Source of the DNA: Chloroflexota bacterium
GTDB lineage: Bacteria; Chloroflexota; Anaerolineae; JACRMK01
Reading direction: 5' to 3'
Assembly: GCA_016235055.1 (NCBI GenBank)
Contig: JACRMK010000046.1
Span: 34,958-98,957, forward strand
DNA: 64,000 bases
Shown here: piece after piece, positions 6,356-62,459 of the stretch
How positions within the stretch are numbered: position 1 is the first letter of the stretch
How the letters are laid out: the number at the start of each line of letters is the position of its first letter
Made by a program: the position numbers and the translations under genes
Notes under the pieces: generated by a model
The model's database searches: none
Seen by the model: only the letters and a program-made list of their open reading frames with translations
What the model was told of the DNA's origin: nothing

Positions 6356-6523
6356 CCACGGCATGACGGCGTGACAGGATGACAGGCTGGCCGGGTGACA
6401 CGGTGACACGATGAAGAGATGACGGGATAACACGATGACAAGGGGCAGCTTGGGGCGCACTATGAGCGCAGATTCGCGTTATTCGCGGACAGGTTGTTTT
6501 TAAGAAGTCCGACGGTTTGACGG

Positions 6524-11941: not shown

Positions 11942-12192
11942 AGGTATATTCAGTTCTGGGGCGCAACCAATACGGAGCAAGAACATAGTAGCTCGTTATG
12001 TCCGCGTAGGGGCGCATGGCCATGCGCCCGCATCCAGAGGTGCTGCCCCCTGGATTCCCGCGGTGCTCTGCGGCCTTCATCCTGTGCCCGCGCCTGCGGC
12101 GCGGAGCGGGGCGAAGCCCCGCTGCACAGGACATCGCGCAGAGCGTTAACCGCCCGCTGGCCCGAAGCCAGCGGGAAACGCGCGGGAGTGAC
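11942..12192. repeat. Composite intergenic repeat, family 4 (GGTATATTCAGTTCTGGGGCGCAACC module plus GTAGGGGCGC hairpins)
   Basis: Modules recur at about 31255-31370 (inverted) and 55057-55220; several perfect short palindromes. Confidence 0.55.
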
Positions 12193-12433
12193 GTCTTGTT
12201 CTGCCACGGACACCTATTTGCCCCCAATTTGAAATGCGCTCCTATGCCGTAGTGCATACCCGAAAGGTTTAGCGCACCTCCGATAGCGGACAACCCACGA
12301 GAAACTCTTCGGGTCGCAACGCGCCGCGCTCCCATTCGTCGTGCCGGACAACCCTGTGCGCCGATATCCGCGCAATTCCAGCAGATTCATTTCCTCTAGT
12401 ATAATGACCGACGTACCAATTTTGGAGGTCTCT

Positions 12434-17278: not shown

Positions 17279-17415
17279 GTCATGTTGAGCGCGGCGGCCA
17301 AGTCATCATTAGGCAGACAATCACGCACGCGAAGCATCTATGCCGAAGCATTTCAGGTGCTTCGCGCGCGTGACAGGCCTACCCACAGCGGCCTTGCCTT
17401 CGCGCTGCTCATGAC
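17279..17415. repeat. MITE-like element, family 1 copy
   Basis: Terminal inverted repeats GTCATGTTGAGCGCGG / CCTTCGCGCTGCTCATGAC; internal GAAGCATTTCAGGTGCTTC hairpin as in the copy at 2777. Confidence 0.55.
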
Positions 17416-21724: not shown

Positions 21725-21739
21725 CCGGAAAGCCCACCG

Positions 21740-21955
21740 CAGAGCACGCAAAGAGCGCAAAGAAAAGCTTTGTTGACCGTGAATAACGCGAATTGGCGCT
21801 AGTCGAACGCTAACCGCAGAGAACGCAGAGGAAAACAAGACCAACCGCAAAGCACGCAAAGAGCGCAAAGGAGAACCCTGCTTTCGATTGGCGTCGATTC
21901 GCGTTATTCGCGGATAGAGAGCTTTTCTTTGCGGTCTTTGCGCCCTTTGCGGTTC
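21740..21955. repeat. MITE-like element, family 2 (nested inverted repeats; inner GAATAACGCGAAT / ATTCGCGTTATTC)
   Basis: Outer inverted repeat CGCAAAGAGCGCAAAG / CTTTGCGCCCTTTGCG and inner CCGCGAATAACGCGAAT-type termini; related copy at 56831-56974 and solo ends near 2712, 6465, 24808. Confidence 0.6.
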
Positions 21956-22026
21956 AATGTTCTTGGTGTCCATTCGTGTTCCTTCGTGGACAAAGGTGAT
22001 GTTGAATCTTCCCTGGGGATTTTCTA

Positions 22027-23057: not shown

Positions 23058-23092
23058 AACCCTTCGGGTCTTCAAGACCCGAAGGGTTTTTT
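23058..23092 (+). terminator. Rho-independent terminator (CCCTTCGGGTC family) after dehydrogenase gene
   Basis: Palindrome AACCCTTCGGGTC-ttcaa-GACCCGAAGGGTT followed by TTTTTT. Confidence 0.65.
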
Positions 23093-23121
23093 GGATTCGC
23101 GAAACGACCGGAGGCGCGGAT

Positions 23122-24765: not shown

Positions 24766-24839
24766 AACTTTTCACCGCAGAGAGCGCAGCGAGAACCTTT
24801 GTATCCGCGAATAACGCGAATCGGCGCGAATAGAACAAC

Positions 24840-24995
24840 TGCGTCCCCCAATGAACGCAAAGAGCGCAGAGGTTACTCCCTGCGCTCTCGTCATCTCTTC
24901 ATCCAGTTATCTTGTCATCTCTTCATCCAGTCATCTTGTCATCTCTTCACCTTGTCACCTTGTCACCTTGTCATCTTGTCATCCCGTCATCTTTC
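24840..24995. repeat. Short tandem repeats (CTTGTCAYC units) next to solo family-2 repeat end
   Basis: TCATCTCTTCATCCAG... then CACCTTGTCACCTTGTCACCTTGTCATCTTGTCATCC; similar GTGACAGGATGACAGG tract in inverted orientation near 6380-6450. Confidence 0.55.
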
Positions 24996-25479
24996 AGATG
25001 ACCGGCTTCTCCTTGTCGGTCAGGTTGACGACGACGGCGCGGCTCGCCTTGACCAGGTCGGCCGGCGCAATCAGGATCTCCTCGCCCCACTGGCCGGTGC
25101 CGACGCCGAGCACGCTCTCAATCAGCAGTGACGCTTCGAGGAACGAGCGGAAGCCCGGCCTCTGCCAGTGAAACGGCGGGATCGAGCCGATCTCGTAGCC
25201 GGTCGTCGTTTTGACCGCTTCCGGGCTGGCGAGCTTGATGTTGCGCGAGTTGAGCACCTTCTTCAGGTGCCCGGAGATCGCGCTCTGGTCGCCGCCGAGC
25301 ATGATCAGTGCCCGCTCGCCGCGGTCGTTCTCGAAGATCAGCGTCTTGACCATCTGCCGCTCGTTGAAGCCGAGCGCGCGCGCCACCGAGGCCGCGCCTT
25401 TCTCGATGTCGGTCGGGAATGAGCGCCGCTCGTATGGAATATTCTGCTGGTCGAGGTAGTCGTGGGATGGCAGGTTCAT
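24994..25479 (-). CDS. ybaK: YbaK/ProX-type aminoacyl-tRNA deacylase (Cys-tRNA(Pro) editing domain)
   Basis: 161 aa from internal ATG with AGGAGA upstream; central G-rich loop and K...GG editing-domain pattern (MVKTLIFENDRGERALIMLGGD). Confidence 0.75.
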   Translation of the reverse strand: MNLPSHDYLDQQNIPYERRSFPTDIEKGAASVARALGFNERQMVKTLIFENDRGERALIMLGGDQSAISGHLKKVLNSRNIKLASPEAVKTTTGYEIGSIPPFHWQRPGFRSFLEASLLIESVLGVGTGQWGEEILIAPADLVKASRAVVVNLTDKEKPVI

Positions 25480-25587
25480 CGCGGTCTCCTGTGCCGGTTG
25501 GCGTAGTGCGCGTATTATAGCCGAACCGCATCCACGAAGGAATACAAAGGGGCACGAATAGACCGCCGACACACAGCAATCCCGACC

Positions 25588-25687
25588 GTCATGCCGGCAA
25601 GTAGTAAGCCGGCATCCACGACCACGGCACGCAAAAGCCCGTGACTCTTGGCCGTGTGGATTCCGGCCAAAATCACGCCGGAATGAC
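25588..25687. repeat. MITE-like element, family 3 (termini GTCATGCCGGCA ... GCCGGAATGAC)
   Basis: About 100 bp with 11-bp terminal inverted repeats and internal hairpin GCCGGCAAGTAGTAAGCCGGC; second copy 41470-41568. Confidence 0.6.
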
Positions 25688-25852
25688 AAATTGCCGATTG
25701 TTGCCGACTTTTAGCGCTTCTTGCCTGTTTGGTGCCCCTTCGTGCCGCTTCGTGGACAATGCTCCCGCGATTTCTGGTATACTTTCAAGGATACGGCCGC
25801 GCGCGGCGGCGCGCCAGCCGGCTGGCGCTGGTTACCCACGGAGGACGCGAAT

Positions 25853-27763
25853 ATGGCTCACGGAAGCACTGGCAAGATCCTGCACGTCAATCTCACCACA
25901 TCGGCTATTCACACCGAAGATATCGACGAGGCGCTGTACCGCCTCTACCCCGGCGGCAAAGCGCTGGCCGCCTACCTGCTGCTCAAGCAGATGCCGGCAC
26001 ACGCCGACCCGCTCGGCCCCGACAATGTGCTGATCCTGGCCAACGGCGTGCTGACCGGCGCGCCGGTCTCGACCGCCACGCGCTTTTCGGCCGTCGCGCG
26101 CTCGCCACTAACCGGCGCATTCGGCGAGTCGGAAGCGGGCGGTTTCTGGGGCCCGGAACTCAAGTTCGCCGGCTTCGAGGCGATCGTGCTCAAAGGGCGC
26201 GCCGACAAGCCGGTCTACCTCTGGATCAAAGACGGCCGGGTCGAGATTCGCGATGCAGCGCACCTGTGGGGCAAGGAGACCGGCGACACGCAGAACGCCG
26301 TGCGCGCCGAACTGGGCGACAAGCTGGTGCGCTTCCTGCAGATCGGCCCCGGCGGCGAGAACCTGGTGCGCTTCGCCTGCCTGACCAACGACCTGCGCCA
26401 CTACAACGGCCGCAACGGCATGGGCGCGGTGATGGGCTCCAAGCGGCTCAAGGGTATCGCCGTGCGCGGCAGCGGCAAGTACCTCGACCTTGCCGAGCAG
26501 CCGAAGGCGCTCTCGGAGTTCGGCAAGCTGCTGTCGAAGCGCGTCAAGAACCAGCCGCAGTCGTTCGACTTGCAGGAGAAGGGCACGCCGGGCATCACCG
26601 GCGGCCTGAACGCGGCCGGCATCCTGCCGACGCGCAACTTCCTGCAGGGCGCGTTCGAAGGCGTGGACGGCCTCAAGTGGGAGGTATACGAGAAGGAACT
26701 GCTGACCGCCCGTCGCTCGTGCTACGCCTGCGCCGTGCGCTGCAAGCGCGAGGTCGCGGTGAACGACCGCTACGTGGTCAGCGATACTTACGGCGGCCCG
26801 GAGTACGAGGCGGTCGGCGGCTTCGGCTCGAACTGTGGCATCGGCGACCTGCAAGCGGTCGCCAAGGCGAACGAACTGTGCGGGCGCTACACGCTCGACG
26901 CCATCTCGACCTCATCGGTCATTTCGTTCGCCATGGAATGCTTCGAGCACGGGCTGATCACGACGAAGGACACCGGCGGCATGGAACTGCGCTTCGGCAA
27001 TGTCGACGCGATGCTGAAGACGGTCGAGTTGATCGCGTTCCGTAAGGGCATCGGCGACCTGCTGGCCGAGGGCGTCAAGCGCGCGGCTGAAAAGATCGGC
27101 GGCGACGCGCCGTTTTTCGCGATGCACGTCAAGGGCCAGGAACTGCCGATGCACGACCCGCGCGGCAAGATTGGCGTTGGCATCGGCTACGCCGTCAACG
27201 AGGGCGGCGCGGATCACCTCGTCGCGTACCACGACACGGCGCTCGCGAACCCGGCGTCGGCCGGTTTCAAGAGCGCGACGGCGCTCGGCATCACGGAAGC
27301 GGTGCCACCGCGCGAACTCAGCGCGCGCAAGGCGTTCAACTACGCGATTCTGGAGAACTGGAGCAGCGCCGGCAAGGTGACCGGCTACTGCTACTTCGGC
27401 CCCGGCCCGCGCTCGTTCATCGAGGCGCAGGAAGTCGTCGATTCGGTGCGCGCGGCGACCGGTTGGGATCTGACGATTGCCGACCTGCTCAAGATCGGCG
27501 AGCGGGCGACGAACCTGGCGCGCGTCTTCAACGTGCGCGAAGGGTTCTCGCGCAAAGACGACATGATCCCGGAGCGGTTGTTTGCGCCGTCGCCGGTCGG
27601 CGCGCTGCAGGGCGTCGGCATCTCGCACGACGAGTTCGAGCAGGCGCTGACCGAGCTGTACCGGCTGAAGGGCTGGGACCCGGAGACCGCGAAGCCGACC
27701 CGCGAGCGCCTGCGCGAGCTGGGCATCGAGTGGGCGGCGGACATCGTCGAGGCGTCCGCGTAG
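25853..27763 (+). CDS. Aldehyde:ferredoxin oxidoreductase (tungsten/molybdopterin AOR family)
   Basis: 636 aa from internal ATG with GGAGGA upstream; N-terminal HVNLT...YPGGKAL AOR signature; cysteine motif CYACAVRC for the [4Fe-4S] cluster. Confidence 0.9.
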   Translation: MAHGSTGKILHVNLTTSAIHTEDIDEALYRLYPGGKALAAYLLLKQMPAHADPLGPDNVLILANGVLTGAPVSTATRFSAVARSPLTGAFGESEAGGFWGPELKFAGFEAIVLKGRADKPVYLWIKDGRVEIRDAAHLWGKETGDTQNAVRAELGDKLVRFLQIGPGGENLVRFACLTNDLRHYNGRNGMGAVMGSKRLKGIAVRGSGKYLDLAEQPKALSEFGKLLSKRVKNQPQSFDLQEKGTPGITGGLNAAGILPTRNFLQGAFEGVDGLKWEVYEKELLTARRSCYACAVRCKREVAVNDRYVVSDTYGGPEYEAVGGFGSNCGIGDLQAVAKANELCGRYTLDAISTSSVISFAMECFEHGLITTKDTGGMELRFGNVDAMLKTVELIAFRKGIGDLLAEGVKRAAEKIGGDAPFFAMHVKGQELPMHDPRGKIGVGIGYAVNEGGADHLVAYHDTALANPASAGFKSATALGITEAVPPRELSARKAFNYAILENWSSAGKVTGYCYFGPGPRSFIEAQEVVDSVRAATGWDLTIADLLKIGERATNLARVFNVREGFSRKDDMIPERLFAPSPVGALQGVGISHDEFEQALTELYRLKGWDPETAKPTRERLRELGIEWAADIVEASA

Positions 27764-28753: not shown

Positions 28754-28787
28754 AGCCCCTTCGGGATTTCAAGACCCGAAGGGGCTT
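28754..28787 (+). terminator. Terminator hairpin (CCCTTCGGG family)
   Basis: AAGCCCCTTCGGG-atttcaa-GACCCGAAGGGGCTT. Confidence 0.55.
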
Positions 28788-28808
28788 CTGTTTCCGGCCA
28801 CCTCGGGC

Positions 28809-28950
28809 GGTCATCCTGAGCGCGAAAGCGGGGCGTATGTCCTTTGGCTCGTTAGGCGCGCGAAGGATCTGAACTGCCGCCTCTCAGATTCTTCGCGCGC
28901 GAGGCGTGTTGCACGCCATCGGTCTTGCCGCCGCGCTCCGAATGACAGCG
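28809..28950. repeat. MITE-like element, family 1 copy
   Basis: Termini GGTCATCCTGAGCGCGAAAG / CCGCGCTCCGAATGACAGCG with internal CGCGCGAAGG...CTTCGCGCGCG hairpin. Confidence 0.5.
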
Positions 28951-31037: not shown

Positions 31038-31254
31038 ACGACGCCCGTCGGCGCAATCGAAATTATACCCGCGCTATGGATGACGGGCAACTGGCGACCC
31101 GGCAACGGGTATACCGACAAACTGTCGGGGACTCAATCGGTCGTCATGCCGGAATGGCGGATTGGTCAGCCGTGCGGCCCCGACACTTTTGCGGTATACC
31201 CTTTCAATTGGGTGCATTTCGGATTGGGGCCGGGCGCATGCAACTCAACGAGGC

Positions 31255-31370
31255 GTCACTCCCGCGGAAGCGGGAGTCCAGGGACAACACCGCTGGATGC
31301 CCGCGCTGGTCGGCGGCGAGCCACCGTGGTCTCATACCGTATTGGTTGCGCCCCGGAACTGAAAATACCC
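31255..31370. repeat. Intergenic repeat, family 4 partial copy
   Basis: CGTATTGGTTGCGCCCCGGAACTGAAAATACC is the reverse complement of the module at 11942; CACTCCCGCGGAAGCGGGAGTC hairpin. Confidence 0.5.
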
Positions 31371-38202: not shown

Positions 38203-41200
38203 TCAGATCAGGCGGCGATCCAAAGCGGCGCGCATGGCAGCCGAACGAGAGGGCACGTCCAGCTTGGCGTAGACCGACCGCAGATGACCGCGCACGGTAT
38301 GCACGCTGATAACCAGCCGGTCCGCGATTTCCTTGTCGCTTAGGCCCTGAGCGAGCCAGCGCAGCACCTCCATCTCGCGCGCGGTCAGGGGTTCGCCGGG
38401 CGTTGGCGGTGCACCTTCGTCAACGGGCCCGCCATGCGACTCGGGAGAGGGGTGTTGCCGCTTGGGACCCAGTGCCTCCAGCGCGGCGCGCGCGCGCGCC
38501 GCGTCGGGCAGCGCCTGCACTTCCTCAAAACCGGCCAACGCGCGGGAAAGATAGTCGTGCGCGCGGACAGCGTCGCCGCGCGCGCGTTCGAGGTCGCCGA
38601 GGTCGGCCAACGTGCGACCCGTTTGCCAGGGGGTGCCTAATTGCTGGAACAGCGCCAGTGCCTGCTGGAAGCGTGTTTCCGCTGAGGGGTATTCGCCGGC
38701 CAGCCGGTGAGCCACGCCCCAGGCGCGATGGGCGACGGCCTGATAGAGCACATGGCCGTAGCGCATGGCCAGCGCTTCGGCGAGCGGCGCGTACCTGCGC
38801 AGCATCGGCTCGTCGGCCCGCTGCGCCGCCGTGTCGGCCATTGTGGCGAACAGATCATGGTCGCCGGGCCAGCTTCCGTTATTAAACACCTGTGGGTTGT
38901 TCGCAAATCGCTTCTGCAATGCCCCTTCCAGGTGCTGCTCCACGAGGGCGAACTCGCCCTCCGCCATTAACGGCAGCGCATGTCAGTAGTGCTGGGTGCG
39001 TCCCCACCCATCGGGCCCGACGACCGCGCCCATGATCTGGGCCGACTCGAGTCGCAGCCGGCGCGCGCGTTCGGAATCCCCGCGCATCGCATAGGCGCAC
39101 GAGAAAATGGCGGTGTGCCAGCAAGGATATTGGAACAGGTCCTGCGTGGAGCGCCGCTGCAGCGCAACCATGATTTGCTCGCTGCGGAGGACCTCGTTCC
39201 AGCGGTCGAGGCGCAGCCAAGACAGTGCCTGGCTCGCAAGTGTATGGAGGCAAAGGTCCAATGCGCGAATCTGCCCGGCCTGCGTCTGTGCTTCATCCAG
39301 ATACCGCAGCGCGTCTGTGTATTCGCCCACCGACGCCAACGCCGCGCCCAATTGCATCAAAATCCGCACACGCTCGCGCTGATCGCGGAAACGGGCATCG
39401 CGGCTCAGCGCCAACCGGCGCTGCACCAACTCTATTTGCTCGCGCAGCATGCCCTGCGCGCCATAGACCAGGGCCAGCGCGTCGAGCGCAACCGACGTGA
39501 CGACAGGGTCGTCCAGTTTTTCGGCCATATCCACGCCGGCGCGGGCGTACCGCTCGGCAGCCTCCCAGTCTGCGCTCGCTTGCCGGATCCACATGGCCGA
39601 GGAAAGGGTGGCCAGCAAGTAAACCGTTTCCACATGCGGCGGTTCCACGCTCGCTATTTCCCATGCAACGGCCAGCTGGGCCCGCGCATCGACCCGGAAG
39701 CGCTGGAAGTCGGCGCCCGCGCGCAGATTGAGCACGGCGTTCCCAAACTTGCGGCGCAAGCGAACGGCAAGCATCTTGTCACCGCTGGCCAGCGCGTCCC
39801 ACAGCGCGATCGCCTGCGCGAAGAGCGGAACCGCCAGCAAGGTGTCTCCCTGTTGGTCGTATATGTCGGCCAATTGCTCGACCACGGCGGCTTGCGTGTC
39901 CGGTTTGCGGCTGCCCTGCAGCCAGTCCAGCGCGCGGTGCAAATGCTGCGCCGCCGCGTCATACGCATGGACGGACTGAGCACGCCGCGCCGCCTTGCAG
40001 GCGTAATCGATCGCTTTGTCGCGCTCTCCGGCCGCGCTGAAGTGATAAGCCAGCGCTTCGTCGTCATCCGGATGCCGGCCCTCGATCGCCATCGCAACCT
40101 GGCGGTGAAGATGCTGGCGGCGCGGGGCCACAATATCTTCCTGCAGCGCCGACGGGATGAGCGCATGGGCAAAGACGGACAGGCTGTGCCCGCCTCGCCG
40201 CGTCTCCCGGATCAGCCCCGCGCGCCCGGCGGTCTCCAGGGCATCGATCAGCCGATCGGCCTCCAGGTCGCCCGCAATACGCAGCAGGTCAACGTCAAAT
40301 TCCCTGCCGATGATCGCCGCCAGGCGCAAGACATCCTGCACAGCAGCCGGCAGTTTCTCCACGCGCGCCCGGACCACGGCGCGCACGTTCTGCGGGATGT
40401 GGGACTGTTCCGGCGAGGGCCAGTGCCAGCGTTCTCCTGTGCGATACAGCGTGCCGTCTTCGAGCAGTCCTTTGACAACCTCCTCAATAAAGAAGGGGTT
40501 GCCTTCGGTCTGGCGATACAGGTATTCCAGAAATGCGGGCTCGACCTCGCCGCCAAAAGGCGCGGCCAGCAGCTCGCGAGCCTGCTCGAGGGTGAAGCGC
40601 GACACGCCGAGGTGCGTGCTCAGCCGCTCGCGATTGAGGTCCAGCAGCAGGTGGCCGAGGGCCGCGTTGTCGTGCAGCTCCTCCTCTCGGTAGGTCAGGA
40701 CCACCATGAGACGCATCTGGAATGCGCGGCGAGCCACGTGGCGCAGCAGGTCGAGGGTGCCTCGATCAGCCCAGTGCACGTCCTCAATAGCGAGCACGAC
40801 GGGCGTGCGCGCGGCCGGCGCAGCGCACAACTCCGCGACGCTTTCAAAGATGCGCTCTCGCTCCGAGAGCGGATCGAGCGTGGGATTTGGAGCTATGGCC
40901 GGATAGCGTGCACGCAGCGCCGGCGCGAGTGTAACGAGGTCAGCCAGGGCGAATGCGGGGAGACGCAATTCCTCGCTGGACTGCTCTAAGGCTTGCCGGA
41001 TGAACTGGGCAATGGGAGCATACGGCGTGCCGCCTTCGGCATGGCAGTCGCAGATGAACGCGCGTGCGCCGGCGCGGGACGCCCGGGAGGTGAATTCGCG
41101 CACCAGGCGCGTCTTGCCGACACCCGGCTCGCCGCTCACGAGCAGCGTATGACCTTCGCCGTCCAGCACTCGCCCGAACACGGCGTCGGCCTCGGCCAAC

Positions 41201-41253
41201 TCCCGCGCACGTCCAACAAATGGGCTGCGTAGCAGGCGTTCCAGCATTGGCAT
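38203..41253 (-). pseudogene. Large LuxR-family regulator (N-terminal AAA/NTPase, helical repeats, C-terminal LuxR HTH) interrupted by one in-frame TGA
   Basis: Walker A GEPGVGKT near N-terminus; LuxR HTH (EIADRLVISVHTVRGHLRSVYAKL) at C-terminus; ORFs 38983..41253 and 38203..38967 are in the same frame, separated by TGA at 38983-38985 plus 5 sense codons. Confidence 0.7.
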
Positions 41254-41469
41254 TAGAATCTCGGACCGACTAGCTAATGGAGTGCTACGGGGGTGTATTT
41301 ACCCGTGATCGTCGCGATCTGGGACACGGGCGTGCTCCCTTCCATAGCACGCTGCGCCGATGGTGCTGCCTCATTCGGGTAGACCGATAATAGGCTCGCG
41401 GGAAGCTAATGTCAAGCGAGTAAAAGGTAGGAGCGCACCTCAGTTTCGGGGTAGAGTTGTTGGCAACCC

Positions 41470-41568
41470 GTCATGCCGGCATGTAGTTAGCCGGCATCCA
41501 CGCCAGCATCTGGCGCGCATGCTGGCCCGTGTTACGCCGGCGTGGATTCCGGCCTTCGCCGGAATGAC
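41470..41568. repeat. MITE-like element, family 3 copy
   Basis: GTCATGCCGGCATGTAGTTAGCCGGCAT ... GCCGGAATGAC; close match to 25588-25687. Confidence 0.6.
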
Positions 41569-41792
41569 GGCTTGGATATGCGGTGCATCAGTTTCTGCAC
41601 TCACGCATCCGACGCTGCGGGATGTAATTCTTGCAACGACAGTCTCGCTGAGTGGTGGTTATGCGTATCGGACATCTCTGTTACTGAGTTGTCGAAATCT
41701 AGCATTCATCCGATATTCGCAATATACACTGTATTTCCGGGCGCTTCGTACTCATCGCATGCGCGCTATTTGCTGAAAAGTCAGTAAGCGTT

Positions 41793-42485
41793 CTAGCCGC
41801 CGCTGCGGCGGCCGGGCAGTCCCGCAGAGTCTTTCGGTGCCGTGCGCATCTTTTCCATCATCCGCATGCGCACCTGCGCCAGCGCGTGCTTGAGCGGCGT
41901 CACGCGCAACAGCAGCAGTAACGCGAGCACCGTGCCGTACACCAGCGGCAGGCCGACGTTGCCTTGCAAACGCAGGAAGTCGCCTTTGACCGATAGAACG
42001 AAGTGCACGACCACCAGCGGCGCAATCAGATAGACCAGCTTGTGCAGGCGCGTCCAGCCTTTGCCAAGCCGTTTCATCCAGTAGCGGAACGACGTGACCG
42101 CCAGCGGCACCAGCAGCAGGAACGCCGTCGTGCCGATGATGATGTACCACTTGCTGCCGACGTCGGCCCAAATCAACCCGAAATCGAACGTGTAGTCCAC
42201 CCCGACGAACGCCAGCAGGTGCAGGCTGGCGTACATGAAGCCATAGAGCCCCAGCGCCTTGCGGCGCCGCAGCACCGCCTTCCAGCCGCCGATCGAGGCC
42301 AGCGGCGTGCAGGCCAGCGACAGCAGCAGGAAGGTCAGCGCGACCAGCCCCGTGCGCTGCTCGATCGCCTGGATCGGGTTGGATGTCAGGTTGCGCGCCA
42401 GCGCATCGGCAGCCAGCCACGCCAGCGGCAGCCAGCCGCCGATGTGGACGAGCGCCTGCAGCGGGTCAGGCAAGTGATGTTTCAT
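41793..42485 (-). CDS. msrQ: Protein-methionine-sulfoxide reductase heme-binding subunit MsrQ (YedZ-like)
   Basis: 230 aa from internal ATG, 6 TM helices, conserved His residues for heme b; immediately downstream of msrP. Confidence 0.85.
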   Translation of the reverse strand: MKHHLPDPLQALVHIGGWLPLAWLAADALARNLTSNPIQAIEQRTGLVALTFLLLSLACTPLASIGGWKAVLRRRKALGLYGFMYASLHLLAFVGVDYTFDFGLIWADVGSKWYIIIGTTAFLLLVPLAVTSFRYWMKRLGKGWTRLHKLVYLIAPLVVVHFVLSVKGDFLRLQGNVGLPLVYGTVLALLLLLRVTPLKHALAQVRMRMMEKMRTAPKDSAGLPGRRSGG

Positions 42486-42535
42486 GACCGGACGTAGACC
42501 TGGCGGGTTTGCAAAACCCGCGAGGTCTTTCTCGC

Positions 42536-43507
42536 TCAATAGTTCTTCCGCAAGTCCAGCCCCGCGTAGAGGCCGGCGACCTGCTCGGCATAGCCGTTGA
42601 ACGGCTGCGTCGTCCGCCGGCGCAATTCGCCGATGCGCCGCTCGCTGCCCTGCGACCAGCGCGGGTGATTGACCTCCGGATTCACATTAGCGTAGAAGCC
42701 ATATTCATTCGAGGCAATCGTGCTCCACATCGTCTTCGGCTGCGTGTCGGTTAACTCGATCTTGACGACCGCCTTGATCGACTTGAACCCGTACTTCCAC
42801 GGCACGACCAGCCGGATGCCGCCGCCGTTCGCGGCCGGTAGTTCGCCGCCGTACAGGCCGGTCGCCAGCAGCGTCAGGTCGTTCATCGCCTCGTCGATAC
42901 GCAGCCCTTCCTGGTACGGCCAGGGGTAGAACGGCGAGCGCTGGCCGGGGAAGTCGTCCGGCTTGAAGAGCGTCTCGAAGCGCACATATTTCGCGGCTGC
43001 CGTCGGTTCGACCGCCTTCAGCAGCTTCGCGAGCGGGAAGCCGACCCACGGGATGACCATGCTCCACGCTTCGACGCAGCGCAGGCGGTAGATGCGCTCC
43101 TCGGGCTGGAAGCGCTTGATCATCTCCTCGACGGCGTACTTGCCCGGCTTGCCTACCAGGCCCGACACCTGCACGTCCCACGGCGACGTCTTGAAGTTGG
43201 CGGCGCGCGGCGCAACGCCCTCTTTCTCTTCCGTGAACTCGTAGTAGTTGTTGTAGTGCGTGATGTCCTGGTACGACGTCGCCGGATCGCCCAGTTCGTC
43301 CTTGCGCGCGGACGCGCCCGGCTGGGCCGCAGGCGGCGCCGTGGCCGAAGGCGCCGGCTGCGCGTCGTTGCCTGCCAGCGGACCGCACGCCGCAAGTGCC
43401 ATGCTGCCCGCCACCACGCCGGTGGCCTTGATAAACTCGCGCCGCGAGAGGTACACCGCCTTCGGCGTGACCTCGGATTCCGCGATGCGCGGATAACGGC
43501 TCTTCAT
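42536..43507 (-). CDS. msrP: Protein-methionine-sulfoxide reductase catalytic subunit MsrP (YedY-like molybdopterin oxidoreductase)
   Basis: Twin-arginine signal (SRREFIK), sulfite-oxidase-fold motifs (ITHYNNYYEF, RLRCVEAW, GGGIRLVVPWKYGFKSIKAV). Confidence 0.9.
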   Translation of the reverse strand: MKSRYPRIAESEVTPKAVYLSRREFIKATGVVAGSMALAACGPLAGNDAQPAPSATAPPAAQPGASARKDELGDPATSYQDITHYNNYYEFTEEKEGVAPRAANFKTSPWDVQVSGLVGKPGKYAVEEMIKRFQPEERIYRLRCVEAWSMVIPWVGFPLAKLLKAVEPTAAAKYVRFETLFKPDDFPGQRSPFYPWPYQEGLRIDEAMNDLTLLATGLYGGELPAANGGGIRLVVPWKYGFKSIKAVVKIELTDTQPKTMWSTIASNEYGFYANVNPEVNHPRWSQGSERRIGELRRRTTQPFNGYAEQVAGLYAGLDLRKNY

Positions 43508-46259: not shown

Positions 46260-47024
46260 ATGCGCAAAGAGATAGCAACCGTCGTGTTGGGATTAACAAT
46301 GATACTCGCGGCTTGCGGGCCGACCCCCACACCCGCCGCCATGATGCAAGCCGCGATGCCAACGCCTGACGCAATGATGGCCAAGCCGACGCCCGATGCG
46401 ATGATGGCCAAGCCGACGCCCGATGCCATGATGGCCAAGCCGACGCCCGACGCCATGATGGCGCGCCCAACACCCGACGCGATGATGGCGCACCCAACAC
46501 CCGACGCCATGATGGCGCACCCAACACCCGACGCGATGATGGCGCATTCGACCCCGGATGCCATGATGCAAGCCCCGGCCTGGTTTGGCGCATCGCTGAC
46601 CGATGTGCGCACCGGTCAGACGTTCTCGCTCAACGGCTTCAAAGGCAAGGTGGTGCTGGTCGAAACGATGGCGCAATGGTGTCCGAGTTGCCGCACGCAG
46701 CAGACGCAGGTGAAAGACCTGCGCGCGATGTTTGCCGGGCGCGATGATCTGGTGACGATCGCGCTCGACGTGGATCCGAATGAGCAGGCCGCCGACCTGA
46801 AGAAATACGTGCAGGCCAACGGCTTCGAAGGGTTCTACGGCATCGCGCCCGCCGCCGTGGCGCGCGAGATCGGCAATCTTTATGGCGCGCAATTCCTGAA
46901 TCCGCCGTCCACGCCGATCCTGATTGTGGACCGCCACGGCCTGGCGCATCCCCTGCCGTTCGGCATCAAGAGCGCACGCGATCTGGCGAGCGCCATCGAG
47001 CCGTACCTCAAGGACGCCATGTAA
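46260..47024 (+). CDS. TlpA/ResA-like thioredoxin-fold lipoprotein with tandem nonapeptide linker
   Basis: Lipobox ILAAC; seven to eight repeats of A[KRH]PTPDAMM; redox motif WCPSC; AAGGAG upstream. Confidence 0.85.
   Translation: MRKEIATVVLGLTMILAACGPTPTPAAMMQAAMPTPDAMMAKPTPDAMMAKPTPDAMMAKPTPDAMMARPTPDAMMAHPTPDAMMAHPTPDAMMAHSTPDAMMQAPAWFGASLTDVRTGQTFSLNGFKGKVVLVETMAQWCPSCRTQQTQVKDLRAMFAGRDDLVTIALDVDPNEQAADLKKYVQANGFEGFYGIAPAAVAREIGNLYGAQFLNPPSTPILIVDRHGLAHPLPFGIKSARDLASAIEPYLKDAM
46341..46560 (+). repeat. 27-bp tandem repeat array inside the tlpA-like gene (coding, in frame)
   Basis: GCCAAGCCGACGCCCGATGCGATGATG-type unit repeated about 8 times with third-position and K/R/H variation. Confidence 0.8.
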
Positions 47025-47757: not shown

Positions 47758-48006
47758 CTTGTGCGCACCGGTTCTTGAAGCGCAATACCGTTTCCCGGAG
47801 TAGACCAGGAGCTAGCGCAGCGTGCAGAACCATCGAGCAGGCAGAATGGAAATCGCCACCCGCGCTGTGCCATGCCTGGCGTCCGGCTTTTGCGGGAATG
47901 ACGTACCGAGACCGTGCCGGTTCATTCTACAAGCCGCGCCAGGGGATGAAGTGGCTCAGCATCGCGCCAGTATGCGCCGTGATGATGGAGACGGATGGCG
48001 ACTGCG

Positions 48007-55056: not shown

Positions 55057-55220
55057 GGTGCATTTCACTTCTGGGGCGGCTAATGGGCCAACAAGCCGTC
55101 ATGCCGTTGCCCGCTGGCCCCTTGCCAGCGGGCGCTTGACGGTCAGCGGCGAGAAGCCGCTGACCAGCGCGGGCATCCAGAGGTGTTGCCCCTGGACTCC
55201 CGCTTTCGCGGGAGTGACGA
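55057..55220. repeat. Composite intergenic repeat, family 4 copy
   Basis: GGTGCATTTCACTTCTGGGGCGGC module; GCCCGCTGGCCCCTTGCCAGCGGGC and TCCCGCTTTCGCGGGA hairpins matching modules at 12030-12192. Confidence 0.55.
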
Positions 55221-56690: not shown

Positions 56691-56830
56691 TGCGGGTGCG
56701 TAGGGGCGCGTTGCACGCGTCCCGCAACGGGGCACATGCAATGTGCCCCTACGTTATCCGCAGGTGGCAGATGTCGTTCTGCGAAACGATCATCCGCTGC
56801 CCGCCCAGCACCTCCGCCGCATAGACTCAT

Positions 56831-56974
56831 CCACGAAGGGACACGAAGGAACACCAAGAACACCTTTATCCGCGAATAACGCGAATGAACGCGAATAGAG
56901 CCCACAAACTCCAGAACTGATTGGCCTCGATTCGCGTTATTCGCGGATCGCTTTTTATTTGTGTTCCTTCGTGG
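56831..56974. repeat. MITE-like element, family 2 copy (nested inverted repeats)
   Basis: Outer CCACGAAGGGACACGAAGGAACAC / GTGTTCCTTCGTGG; inner CCGCGAATAACGCGAAT / ATTCGCGTTATTCGCGG. Confidence 0.6.
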
Positions 56975-56982
56975 ACGGTGTG

Positions 56983-59186: not shown

Positions 59187-60785
59187 ATGACCACGTTGTA
59201 TGCCGAGAAGCAGGCTGCGTTCGATTGGATCGAAGCCAACCGAGCGCGCCTTTCCGGCTTCTGCGAGCAGATCTGGAACTATGCGGAGACGGCGTTCCGC
59301 GAGTACAAGTCCGCGCGCGCGTATTGCGATCTGCTGCGCGCCGAAGGGTTCACCGTCGAGGAAGGCTCCGCCGAGATGCCGACGGCGTTCGTCGCGACGT
59401 ACGGCAACGGCGGGCCGGTGCTGGCGACGTTCTCCGAATACGACGCCGTGCCGGAGAACTCGCAGGAGCGCGTGCCGTACCCGTCGCCGCGCGCCGGCCT
59501 GAACCGCTGGGCGGCCGGGCACACCGACCCGCACTCGTCGCTCGGCACGAGCGCGCTGATCGGTGCGCTGGCCGCCAAGGCGATGATGGTCAAATACGGG
59601 CTGCACGGCACGCTCAAGCTGTTCGGCGAGCCGGCGGAGAAGGTCTGCGGTTCCAAGCCGGTACACGCCGCCAAGGGGTATTACGACGGGCTCGACGCGG
59701 CGGTCGTCTATCACCCCAATGCCAGCAACTCCGTAGTGTGGGAAACACACAGCGGCTCGTACTGGAGCGCGGCGTTCGTCTTTGAGTGCATCGATCCGGA
59801 GGAGTGGATCGACCAGCGCCTGCTGCCGAACACGAGCACCTCGCACGCGGCGGCGCGCTGTCCGGCGGCGATCGACGCGCTGTGCCTGATGTATACGCTG
59901 ACCAAGTACAGCAAGGAGGCGATGTTCCCGCACACCGGCACCTGGACGCTCAACGAGAACATCATGGTTGGCGGGCAGTGCACCTCGGACAACCTGCCGC
60001 CGCGCCTGGCGGTCATCCAGTACTCGTGGCGCTCGCCGACGCTCGACATCCAGGAGCGCGTATTCCAGGTGCTGGCGCAGAACGCGCGGCAGGTCGCCGG
60101 CGCGACCGGCTGCGTCGCCTCGGTGCGCTGGATCACGAAGACGCGCGTCGGCCTGCCGAACCTGGCGATCTCCGACCTGGCCTACCGCAACCTGGAACTG
60201 GTCGGCGCGCCCCAGTTTGGAGACGAGGCGCGCACCTTCGCCCGCGCGATCCAGAAGAATCTCGGCTTCGAGCCGATGGACGACCCGTTCATTGCCGACA
60301 ACCAGACGCTGACGCCGCCGCCCGAACTGGAAGCGCGCGTGCGCCAGGGCCTGCCGCCGTGGCAGCTCAACTTCACGTCGGATGATTATGTGGAATACAC
60401 CTGGCACGCGCCGACCGTGCGGCTCTACACGGCGCGGCCGCGCCTGAAGGCGCCCAAGCCCGGTTACACGTACCCGGCATGGGTGAACAACGCGATGGGC
60501 GGCGTGCCGGCCTGCATCGATCCCGGCATGTTCGTCGCGGGCAAGACGATCGCCGCGACGATGCTCGATCTGCTCAAGTCCCCGGACGAGCTCGCCAAAG
60601 CGCAAGCCGAGTTCCGCGAGCGGACGGGTGGCGGCGTGGGCGGCAGCCAGTGGGTCGCGCCGCTGTTGGCGCGCGATTTCCCGCCGCCGGTCGAATTACG
60701 CTGGCCGGAGTACGTGCAGACGCCGCGCGGCGAGGAGTGGTGGGTGCCGACGGTGACGCACGAATCGGCCTACGTGAAGCTGTAG
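59187..60785 (+). CDS. M20-family amidohydrolase (aminobenzoyl-glutamate-utilization AbgB-like)
   Basis: 532 aa from internal ATG with AAGGAGG upstream; metal-ligand regions (GHTDPHS, EPAEK) typical of M20 peptidases. Confidence 0.8.
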   Translation: MTTLYAEKQAAFDWIEANRARLSGFCEQIWNYAETAFREYKSARAYCDLLRAEGFTVEEGSAEMPTAFVATYGNGGPVLATFSEYDAVPENSQERVPYPSPRAGLNRWAAGHTDPHSSLGTSALIGALAAKAMMVKYGLHGTLKLFGEPAEKVCGSKPVHAAKGYYDGLDAAVVYHPNASNSVVWETHSGSYWSAAFVFECIDPEEWIDQRLLPNTSTSHAAARCPAAIDALCLMYTLTKYSKEAMFPHTGTWTLNENIMVGGQCTSDNLPPRLAVIQYSWRSPTLDIQERVFQVLAQNARQVAGATGCVASVRWITKTRVGLPNLAISDLAYRNLELVGAPQFGDEARTFARAIQKNLGFEPMDDPFIADNQTLTPPPELEARVRQGLPPWQLNFTSDDYVEYTWHAPTVRLYTARPRLKAPKPGYTYPAWVNNAMGGVPACIDPGMFVAGKTIAATMLDLLKSPDELAKAQAEFRERTGGGVGGSQWVAPLLARDFPPPVELRWPEYVQTPRGEEWWVPTVTHESAYVKL

Positions 60786-60835
60786 CCAAACGCGACGCAC
60801 AAACGGAAGCGGGACAGGCATGATGCCTGTCCCGC
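60705..60835 (+). repeat. Direct repeat, left copy (3' end of M20 gene plus terminator)
   Basis: 131 bp; identical to 62092-62222 except 2 substitutions. Confidence 0.85.
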
Positions 60836-60841
60836 TTTTTT
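60811..60841 (+). terminator. Rho-independent terminator of M20 gene
   Basis: GGGACAGGC-atga-GCCTGTCCC followed by GCTTTTTTG. Confidence 0.7.
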
Positions 60842-60945
60842 GTTGTGCGTGCTATCCCTCAGCGCGCCCGGCTGGACGAAACTGGCTTGAATCCCCGTTT
60901 GCGGCAATCCGCACGAGGAATGTCAAACAGCATCAGTACGGAGAA

Positions 60946-61080
60946 AATGGGGGTACGACGGCGTGTGCCCATTGCCAACGCAGTGGGCAACAAGTCAAGG
61001 ACGGAATCAATGCGTTTGGCAGCCTGCAGTATCGATGCAAAGGCTGTTGCCCTTCTGAACTTTTTCACTTAACACGGTAG
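60946..61080 (+). pseudogene. Possible IS1595-family transposase N-terminal zinc-ribbon remnant
   Basis: ...NGGTTACAHCQRSGQQVKDGINAFGSLQYRCKGCCPSELFHLTR then stop; pattern NG..C.HC...(13)...YRCK.C...F resembles the Zn_Tnp_IS1595 ribbon; no DDE domain follows. Confidence 0.3.
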
Positions 61081-61086
61081 CAATTG

Positions 61087-61743
61087 TCATCTTCCAAGCA
61101 ATTCTGCATTCGACTGGAATAGAGGAATCTGTGTACTTTCAGTATCATCGCAGTCCGGTGAGAACTTGTATTTCACGTTGAAACTCATTTCTGAATAGCT
61201 GTAGGCTTGATACCCTTTAAAATGGGAATTGGAAAGCTGGGTAAAGCGATTCTCAATAGGTTTCCATACGGCGGTGCTCCAATATGAAACCGGATATCGT
61301 ATGCACGACCTCTCGTGAGCCCCACCATCTTGAACATCCAAATCGACAAAAACCAAGAATCGATCTGAACCGAACTTCACATACTCGACCAAGTAGTAGC
61401 CCTTGCCATGATACCAAACGTCTCGCCTGACCCCGACGTTTATCGAACCAAGCGCTTGTGCCTTGGTGATAAACGCCGCGACCCCTGAGGCATCTTGCAC
61501 GGCCGCAGTCGCCCAGAAGGTATTTTCGCGTTGAGCTTTACGCTGTGACTCAATTGTGCTGACAGCTCGATCATCAAGTGTACCATATGAAATCGCATTC
61601 GACGCGCCTTGGTAAACTGCGACGACGGCAGAGAATCCGACGAGGATGATCAGGAGGCCGATTAATCCCCTCAGCAAATTGCCAAAACATCCCGACTCGA
61701 TCAAAATACCCAAGCCAACAGCTCGAAAGAAGTTATCGCTCAT
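61087..61743 (-). CDS. Hypothetical membrane-anchored protein (cargo gene B)
   Basis: 218-aa ORF in AT-richer DNA where stop-free frames of this length are unlikely by chance; two N-terminal hydrophobic helices; ATGA overlap with upstream ORF. Confidence 0.55.
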   Translation of the reverse strand: MSDNFFRAVGLGILIESGCFGNLLRGLIGLLIILVGFSAVVAVYQGASNAISYGTLDDRAVSTIESQRKAQRENTFWATAAVQDASGVAAFITKAQALGSINVGVRRDVWYHGKGYYLVEYVKFGSDRFLVFVDLDVQDGGAHERSCIRYPVSYWSTAVWKPIENRFTQLSNSHFKGYQAYSYSEMSFNVKYKFSPDCDDTESTQIPLFQSNAELLGR

Positions 61744-62054
61744 ATTCCGCCTGCGTCTTTCTCTTCGGTGACAACTGGAGGAAAACAGCGCTTTGCACTA
61801 GAAAGCATGTCTCGCCGTGTGTACCGCATGTATCCAATCTTCAAGTATATGCACTTTGCATTGTGGCGACCATCATGATAGCGGTGTGAGTTTCCAGGCT
61901 TGGGCAATGGCGAACGAAGATGGAAATAGCATCGAACTTCGCTCGCGTATTTTCTTCTGAACTCAGCCCACGGTTGGTTTGTCCCATAAACACAGTCATT
62001 ATACAACTTTGTGCTGCGTTTCTGGTTTATCGGCAATGGGTGTAGCAACGACAT
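61740..62054 (-). CDS. Hypothetical Cys/His-rich small protein (cargo gene A)
   Basis: 104 aa; 4 Cys and 6 His could form a metal site; no obvious RBS. Confidence 0.45.
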   Translation of the reverse strand: MSLLHPLPINQKRSTKLYNDCVYGTNQPWAEFRRKYASEVRCYFHLRSPLPKPGNSHRYHDGRHNAKCIYLKIGYMRYTRRDMLSSAKRCFPPVVTEEKDAGGI

Positions 62055-62091
62055 ACACTTGATTCCATCGATACCGTGCGGTTTGCTCTGG

Positions 62092-62222
62092 CCGGAATAC
62101 GTGCAGACGCCGCGCGGCGAGGAGTGGTGGGTGCCGACGGTGACGCACGAATCGGCCTACGTGAAGCTGTAGCCAAACGCGACGCACAAACGGAAGCGGG
62201 ACAGGCATCATGCCTGTCCCGC
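62092..62222 (+). repeat. Direct repeat, right copy (duplicate of M20 3' end plus terminator hairpin)
   Basis: Same 131 bp as 60705-60835 with G-to-A at position 6 and loop ATGA-to-ATCA; followed by TTCATTTTC. Confidence 0.85.
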
Positions 62223-62459
62223 TTCATTTTCACTCGGGCGCGGTATTCTGTTCGGACCCTATCTGGCTGCGTCGGGATCGCGTAGGGGCGCACCGACGTG
62301 TGCGCCCGCCTGGCACGCTGCGGGCCGACACGCAGGTCGGCCCCTACCACCGGCGCTTTGCGGGTGGCTTTGCCCAATTCGCACGCATGTTCTAAGTTTG
62401 TGCTATAATAGCGACGGGCACAGAACATTAGTTCTCACTACCGCTATAGGAGAATCGCG

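Follow-up and report, generated by a model that had tools for sequence, protein, structure and literature searches.

CGTC-tagged REPs, as described by Di Nocera, De Gregorio and Rocco (2013; BMC Genomics 14:522, PMC3733652), carry a CGTC, TGTC or CCTC tag, a stem of 8–9 bp with A-T and then T-A in the first and second positions, a loop of 4–5 nt (other lengths occur in some species) and a 3′ CCA tail. They are found mainly as head-to-head dimers with spacers of 20–100 bp, and heterodimers are common. They lack a dedicated transposase, and no RAYT gene flanked by CGTC repeats was found in any species. The family CGTC-1 in Neisseria is dRS3. These repeats were reported from five phyla; Chloroflexi are absent from that list and carried GTAG repeats only (PMC3733652).

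Chenal et al. (2025; Nat Commun 16:2388, PMC11893778) extended dRS3 to a 28-nt NTS and to a degenerate Ssn-related motif (SRM), for which they give the search string HGTCWYN(0-2)YYVSBRHN(0-5)WNVSBRGN(0-2)RNCYNB. SsnA is a 94-aa single-domain GIY-YIG protein that binds and cuts the forward strand only, as ssDNA only, just upstream of the hairpin; it is inactive on RNA. The GTC upstream of the palindrome and the C after it are critical for SsnA, and the motif typically stands on both sides of ssn genes (PMC11893778).

Here we examine two elements of ~100 bp in a 64-kb stretch of DNA (the window) from a Chloroflexota MAG, which an earlier note had called MITE-like. We conclude that each is probably (at roughly 70%) a head-to-head heterodimer of CGTC-tagged REP hairpins, of the sequence class of the Neisseria NTS and the SRM.

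Results

Anatomy of the two elements

Elements A (25588–25687, 100 nt) and B (41470–41568, 99 nt) lie where the earlier note had placed them, but its description of two near-identical copies does not hold. Their global alignment has 81 identical columns out of 107 (76%), which is above the line of about 70% that the note had drawn for the pair, and the middles are divergent. Over the left ∼35 nt, 32 of 35 positions match, and the right units have the same stems around loops of 9 and 4 nt. Identity between the spacers (∼40 nt) is 55%, and shuffled spacers reach 47 ± 4.5%. Judged from these alignments, what is conserved between the copies is two end modules and their architecture, not a 100-bp sequence. 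The 11-bp terminal inverted repeats of the note were recovered, the outer 11 nt (GTCATGCCGGC and GCCGGAATGAC) being complementary at 10 positions, and so were its internal hairpins, since hairpins containing GCCGGC are present in both elements.

Each unit consists of C/T-GTC, an 8-bp stem AT(G/T)CCGGC (ATKCCGGC), a loop of 9 or 4 nt, the return stem GCCGG(C/A)AT and CCA. In both elements the left unit is on the plus strand and the right unit on the minus strand, with the GTC heads pointing outward and the CCA tails inward (head-to-head). The left unit of A (25587–25618, plus strand), delimited by sequence and by the SRM string, has a C tag, GTC, stem ATGCCGGC (25591–25598), a 9-nt loop AAGTAGTAA, stem GCCGGCAT (25608–25615) and the CCA tail; a covariance model matches it at 25586–25620 with 37.2 bits (E = 1e-8). 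Its right unit (25657–25688, minus strand), delimited likewise, has a T tag, GTC, stem ATTCCGGC, a 9-nt loop GTGATTTTG, stem GCCGGAAT and the CCA tail, and is matched at 25655–25689 with 36.9 bits (E = 1.3e-8). By alignment and folding, the 38-nt spacer between them (25619–25656) differs from that of copy B and has complementary ends (CCACGG...CCGTGTGG). The left unit of B (41469–41500, plus strand) matches the SRM string and the covariance model (35.3 bits, E = 3.7e-8); it repeats the C tag, GTC, both stems (ATGCCGGC, GCCGGCAT) and the CCA tail of its counterpart in A around the loop ATGTAGTTA. The 42-nt spacer of B (41501–41542) folds into a hairpin of its own and is unrelated in sequence to spacer A. 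The right unit of B (41543–41569, minus strand), delimited by sequence and the SRM string, has a C tag, GTC, stem ATTCCGGC, the 4-nt loop GAAG (41554–41557), stem GCCGGAAT and the CCA tail. It is the best covariance-model match in the window (46 bits, E = 2.3e-11) and has the canonical CGTC-1 form (Di Nocera et al., 2013).

Stem position 3 is G:C in the left units and T:A in the right units, a compensated difference which indicates that each arm pairs with itself and not with the other arm. Indeed, all four units have eight of eight stem pairs within the unit, whereas pairing of arm to arm would carry one mismatch. Folding with DNA parameters gave −25 to −36 kcal/mol for the elements (z = −3.7 to −5.5). 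The pattern GTCATKCCGGC-N4-12-GCCGGMATCC has four matches in the window against 0.00 in shuffled sequence, and a looser version also picks up 31255 and 55218, two units of a second family. When a covariance model of 140 units was run on the window with filters off, exactly these six units and no others were significant (E = 2e-11 to 4e-8). Rfam at its gathering thresholds returned a single result over the whole window, a tRNA at 136–208.

Comparison with CGTC-tagged REPs and the SRM

The 5′ tags are CGTC at 25587, 41469 and 41569 (minus strand) and TGTC at 25688 (minus strand), both among the published tags. The stems (ATGCCGGC/GCCGGCAT and ATTCCGGC/GCCGGAAT) are of the published length and begin with A-T and T-A. 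All four units end in CCAC, which contains the CCA tail and is a minority form (13 of ∼250 units). Both elements are head-to-head, their spacers fall within 20–100 bp, and their arms differ at stem position 3. Six units plus relics lie within the 64-kb window. The loops depart in part from the published families, with 9 nt in three of the four units and 4 nt in one, against 4–5 nt (and other lengths in some species). The SRM string matches all four units of A and B and one further site at 55219 (minus strand), five matches against 0.49 ± 0.66 in 100 shuffles.

With CGTC-1, A and B thus share the CGTC or TGTC tag, the 8-bp stem starting with AT, the CCA tail, the head-to-head arrangement with a variable spacer, the formation of heterodimers whose arms differ in the stem, and the absence of an adjacent transposase. 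They differ in the 9-nt loops of three of four units, in the stem core (CCGGC here, CCCGC in Neisseria) and in the host, here a Chloroflexota MAG. Neisseria dRS3 is a short palindrome of the same descent (ATTCCC-N8-GGGAAT, compared with ATTCCGGC-loop-GCCGGAAT here), and dRS3 and the NIMEs likewise have palindromes that bracket variable segments of 50–150 bp in intergenic DNA; large clusters and a DUS context are absent here. The strict dRS3 consensus ATTCCC-N8-GGGAAT itself was rejected as a description, the ATKCCGGC stems being related to it but outside it. Like the NTS and SRM, the units have GTC just 5′ and C just 3′ of the palindrome, the positions that are important for cleavage and binding, and they face outward as do the units around ssn genes elsewhere; no ssn gene is seen in the window itself. 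On these sequence features the elements appear to be a known kind of repeat, newly seen in Chloroflexota (outside the five phyla of Di Nocera et al., 2013), in an unusual 9-nt-loop variant.

Relics and a second CGTC family in the window

The earlier note had also listed fragments near 31150, 47860 and 55095. The first is a genuine relic: at 31142–31159 (plus strand), CGTCATGCCGGAATGGCG joins the head of a left unit to the end of a right unit at their shared GCCGG, with one mismatch to the predicted junction and 0.02 such matches expected by chance. This collapsed dimer, or deletion footprint, is what stays when a dimer loses everything between its two GCCGG motifs, and it shows such elements to be unstable. 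The candidate at 47860–47902 was rejected as not significant (10.1 bits, E = 1.5 with the covariance model). The fragment near 55095 is the outer end (55097–55105) of the partner unit of another CGTC dimer, at 55097–55220.

That dimer belongs to a second CGTC family with stem ACTCCCGC, spacer GGGRCARCACCK and partner stem ATGCCCGC. It is a full head-to-head dimer (listed on the minus strand; covariance model 44.5 bits) made up of a unit at 55191–55220 on the minus strand and a partner at 55097–55180 on the plus strand, which has two extra hairpins in its loop. At 31254–31312 (plus strand; 40.8 bits) the unit CGTCACTCCCGCGGAAGCGGGAGTCCAG is followed by the spacer GGACAACACCG and a truncated partner (CTGGATGCCCGC...); the region forms a 94% inverted pair with 55156–55219. 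A third, degenerate copy is probably present at approximately 11997–12193 on the minus strand, as read from the sequence (ACTCCCGC...GCGGGAAT, with ∼120 nt inserted in the loop). Its spacer (GGGGCAGCACCT) is of the second-family type and its partner has decayed; the covariance model does not detect this copy, and related modules appear as the pairs I6 and I11. The modules in the second-family loops (55097–55180 and ∼12051–12193) are related to one another, with pairs 12137–12180/55105–55148 and 11939–11995/31317–31373. The position of hairpin modules exactly in these loops suggests hot spots for insertion.

An 8-bp sequence is repeated in tandem, as (GTCAYCTT)n, in the window at 24886–24997 and inverted at 6363–6438, and also in locus L201 (3375–3480) and locus L087 (3040–3320). 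These arrays contain the head (CGTCAT) and the tail (ATCCAGT) of a CGTC unit, with the stem absent, and the covariance model matches one of them at 24888–24907 with 14.6 bits. Similar head-derived arrays stand beside units near ssn in a Nitrospirae locus, and a Dehalococcoidia MAG has an array with a 62-bp period.

Gene context

Copy A lies between two divergent genes, a tRNA-editing-domain gene on its left (24994–25479, minus strand) and AOR on its right (25853–27763, plus strand). The AOR label of the earlier note stands; the protein is MBI5878140.1 (100% identical), with the next relative at 73%. Among loci of AOR relatives from metagenomes, 0 of 80 carry a unit, the best relatives being 73% identical. 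The 'LuxR-type regulator' beside copy B is in fact an AAA_16/TPR ORF of 756 aa (38983–41253, minus strand), and 15 nt beyond it lies a separate TPR+GerE ORF of 254 aa (38203–38967, minus strand). Taken together (38203–41253), the two ORFs resemble one large LuxR-type (LAL) regulator that has been split or frameshifted. On the other side of copy B is a Ferric_reduct gene (41793–42539, minus strand).

The suggestion that both elements sit in promoters and could alter expression was not borne out. The sole strong predicted promoter, TTGACA-17-TATTAT at 41415–41387 on the minus strand, lies between copy B and its gene, with copy B ∼55 bp upstream of the −35 element, and an effect of the elements on expression is therefore unsupported. 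No promoter-like site overlaps copy A; an extended −10 (TGgTATACT, 25775–25783) was seen by eye downstream of it.

The window holds several other repeats. A family built of the modules CCGCGAATAACGCGAATC, GCAAAGAGCGCAAAG and TTCGTGGACAA occurs at 2709–2756, 6450–6501, 21733–21993, 24776–24871, 25729–25759 and 56830–56978; it forms a long palindromic element at 21733–21953, and one of its modules stands between copy A and the AOR start. A palindromic family, GCGCGCGAAG...CTTCGCGCGC, is found at 2822–2918, 17321–17370 and 28810–28906 and includes a 97-nt inverted pair with 75% complementarity. A recurrent hairpin, CCCTTCGGG-N-CCCGAAGGG, lies at gene ends (23060–23093, 28757–28790 and 42499–42532), its first copy followed by a T-run; these hairpins look like terminators. 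At least eight copies of a 27-bp tandem repeat (46326–46595) occupy the 5′ part of an AhpC/TSA-Redoxin-type gene (46260–47024) and encode a repeated peptide rich in proline, alanine and methionine. Finally, direct repeats of 151 bp at 60687–60837 and 62074–62224 (95% identical) flank ∼1.2 kb of DNA with a low GC content, 48% compared with 65% elsewhere. No Pfam match was obtained for the ORFs inside (61087–61743, 61740–62054 and 62027–62428, all minus strand), and 60687–62224 is possibly a small acquired insert.

The same hairpin in other genomes

A scan for the exact pattern, with one genome per species, found at least 120 stretches with the unit. Among the matches listed are 20 Chloroflexota/Dehalococcoidia MAGs, isolates of Dyella, Sphingomonas, Dokdonella, Ottowia and Nocardia uniformis, and many delta-proteobacterial, Nitrospirota, Bacteroidota, Patescibacteria and other MAGs; because the taxon labels come mostly from MAGs, binning errors in them are possible. 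Loops in the wider family are mostly GAAA, GAAG, GCAG or GCAA, and the tails are CCAG, CCAT or CCAC. At genome loci among the matches listed, neighbouring units within 400 bp of each other form 55 pairs, of which 45 are head-to-head, with unrelated spacers, and flanking duplications sought at 45 dimers in other genomes were absent. On IMG/VR contigs the head-to-head pairs were 19 of 27.

The hairpin is supported by compensatory changes. In the 140-unit alignment, double-sided changes occupy 63 cells against 5.9 in shuffles, although this set was pre-selected for pairing. A fairer test located partners by their flanks alone (GTCA...TCCA), with pairing not required: 64 of 76 partners were complementary at all seven free stem positions, with many different stems, whereas controls mostly gave one or two of seven.

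A unit from Nocardia uniformis (L011:1851-1885) is nearly identical to the right unit of A, at 31 of 35 positions, including the compensated stem pair, the rare 9-nt loop and the CCACA tail. Similar 9-nt loops recur in Nocardia, Syntrophobacteraceae and Omnitrophota loci.

Two contigs have a different arrangement. The IMG/VR contig IMGVR_UViG_3300050015_000339 (L209/L255) carries 12 units and a Chromatiaceae MAG contig (L118; 6.6 kb, coverage 484) carries seven, in each case all on the same strand. These single-strand sets contrast with the chromosomal head-to-head rule and may bear on the strand-specific cutting by Ssn.

Association with ssn genes

Loci with ssn were gathered with an approximate family consensus, which retrieved thousands of PF01541 proteins of ∼95 aa. 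In other organisms, units flank ssn in six of eight distinct loci examined. The simplest layout, unit-gene-inverted unit, was seen at four: in the Nitrospirae locus L201 and the Sulfuritalea locus L204 a forward unit lies 30–90 bp before the ssn start codon and an inverted unit just past the stop, and the layout is the same on Novosphingobium aromaticivorans pNL2 and on a Sphingobium plasmid. Dimers stand beside ssn in a Desulfobulbaceae locus and in Azospirillum lipoferum, and the N. gonorrhoeae ssn locus has 12 units in 1.5 kb. A simple detector found no units at the S. meliloti and Planktothrix ssn loci. The stems of the units flanking ssn are of the CCCGC or CCCGG type, not ATKCCGGC.

The window was searched for such a cd10448-type gene in several ways. 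An HMM of 120 Ssn homologs had no match in the 64 kb or in ∼1.9 Mb of other loci that carry units, GIY-YIG motifs sought near units by regex were absent, and tblastn of approximate ssn consensus sequences against the window gave no match either. Pfam searches of ∼55 window ORFs found no GIY-YIG, RAYT (Y1), IS110 or other transposase domain. As ssn was found neither in the window nor in those ∼1.9 Mb, a nuclease partner in this organism is one that we infer.

Discussion

The term MITE-like is apt for A and B in that they are small, non-coding and repeated, with inverted ends. A classical MITE would be a deletion derivative of an IS, with terminal inverted repeats recognized by a DDE transposase and a target-site duplication, and bacterial examples such as the Correia elements share with A and B the similar size, the intergenic site and the inverted ends. 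The 10 of 11 inverted outer nucleotides, the length of ∼100 bp and the collapsed copy at 31142–31159, which is readable as an excision footprint, could all be taken that way. Classical MITEs, however, have conserved interiors, target-site duplications and IS-derived ends, none of which is seen at A or B: the flanks are ..CGACC/AAATT.. for A and ..AACCC/GGCTT.. for B, with no duplication here or at the 45 dimers elsewhere, and the interiors resemble each other little more than shuffled spacers do (55% and 47 ± 4.5%). Moreover, each 'terminal inverted repeat' is the outer half of a hairpin that pairs within itself, the two arms differing by a compensated base pair; these ends are found in many phyla around interiors unrelated to one another; no IS or transposase lies within the window; and the ends fit the definition of CGTC-tagged REPs and the SRM. 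We give a classical MITE hardly any credence, and the label is only loosely apt. Mobilization of a REPIN- or BIME-type doublet by a RAYT (REP-associated tyrosine transposase, IS200/IS605-like) follows the same logic as the arrangement found here, with two inverted REP hairpins that bear an unpaired tag and fold on ssDNA, and REPINs too are regarded as non-autonomous, with a partner gene that is present in single copy between repeats of their own kind. Their tag, however, is GTAG (GTRG) and not CGTC or TGTC, and their enzyme is a tyrosine HUH transposase, whereas the genes found between units of the present kind encode GIY-YIG nucleases. With no Y1 transposase in the window, and given that Di Nocera et al. 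found CGTC repeats around a RAYT gene in none of the species (PMC3733652), this explanation is very unlikely.

A role at the RNA level or in regulation, as a 3′-end stabilizer or a modulator of AOR and the AAA_16/LuxR-type regulator, would be compatible with the main explanation. It draws on the strong folding (z = −3.7 to −5.5 with DNA parameters), on the GAAA, GAAG, GCAG or GCAA loops that prevail in the wider family, on the location of copy B, which follows the same-strand Ferric_reduct gene at a distance of 225 nt, and on the report that REPs in most cases lie 3′ of genes and may function as RNA (PMC3733652). Such a role is nevertheless unlikely: a promoter is predicted between copy B and the AAA_16 gene, copy A is placed such that neither of the divergent transcripts need include it, the elements contain no terminator-like site, and SsnA is inactive on RNA (PMC11893778). 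A reading of the elements as intrinsic terminators was rejected because no T-run follows either hairpin. The units might instead serve as an attachment or target site for a site-specific recombinase of the IS110/Piv type, as dRS3, the core of the related Neisseria unit, does for the specific recombinase of filamentous Nf prophages (PMC11893778), and other repeat modules do sit exactly in the second-family loops at 55097–55180 and 12051–12193. Elements A and B are free of insertions, however, and the window has no IS110-type gene or prophage; use as a target would also account for how the units are used but not for their origin or dimer form. We regard it as highly improbable.

We therefore return to the head-to-head heterodimer of CGTC-tagged hairpins. 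Since units bracket ssn in six of eight loci, the dimer resembles that cassette without its gene, and these small non-coding repeats are probably non-autonomous relatives of a gene-bearing cassette. In a single-stranded state (during replication, repair or the arrival of incoming DNA), each strand would extrude a single 'forward' hairpin. If this genome encodes a single-domain GIY-YIG nuclease of the Ssn type, the enzyme could by analogy bind the stem and the C just 3′ of it, and might then cut the single strand immediately 5′ of the hairpin. The inversion of the units would give each strand one cuttable site. The dimer would be the gene-less counterpart of the unit-ssn-unit cassette and probably multiplied by means of such a nuclease and host repair, not by DDE cut-and-paste. 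The dimer would not be a promoter element, and any effect on neighbouring genes would be incidental. A stronger proposal, that the dimer is the miniature, gene-less form (a 'MITE' in that sense) of a mobile unit-ssn-unit GIY-YIG cassette and that the repeat/nuclease pair recently crossed phyla, is tentative and in our judgement rather doubtful as a whole; its recent inter-phylum movement is drawn from the identity of 31 of 35 positions between a Chloroflexota and a Nocardia uniformis unit.

The analysis corrects a MITE and promoter-element reading to a documented repeat class. For annotation, the elements are repeat features and not regulatory sites, and ORF calls that run through them are over-extended, one example being the 231-aa TTG ORF at 24994–25689. 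The range of CGTC/SRM hairpins is extended to Chloroflexota, together with Actinomycetota and several candidate phyla (under labels that are mostly MAG-based, with binning errors possible), and a 9-nt-loop variant is documented. The loci compared here also provide simple evidence, at the level of sequence, that the outward-facing hairpins around ssn genes form the same bracket as those of the gene-less dimers; this shared bracket bears on the spread of CGTC repeats, for which no transposase is known.
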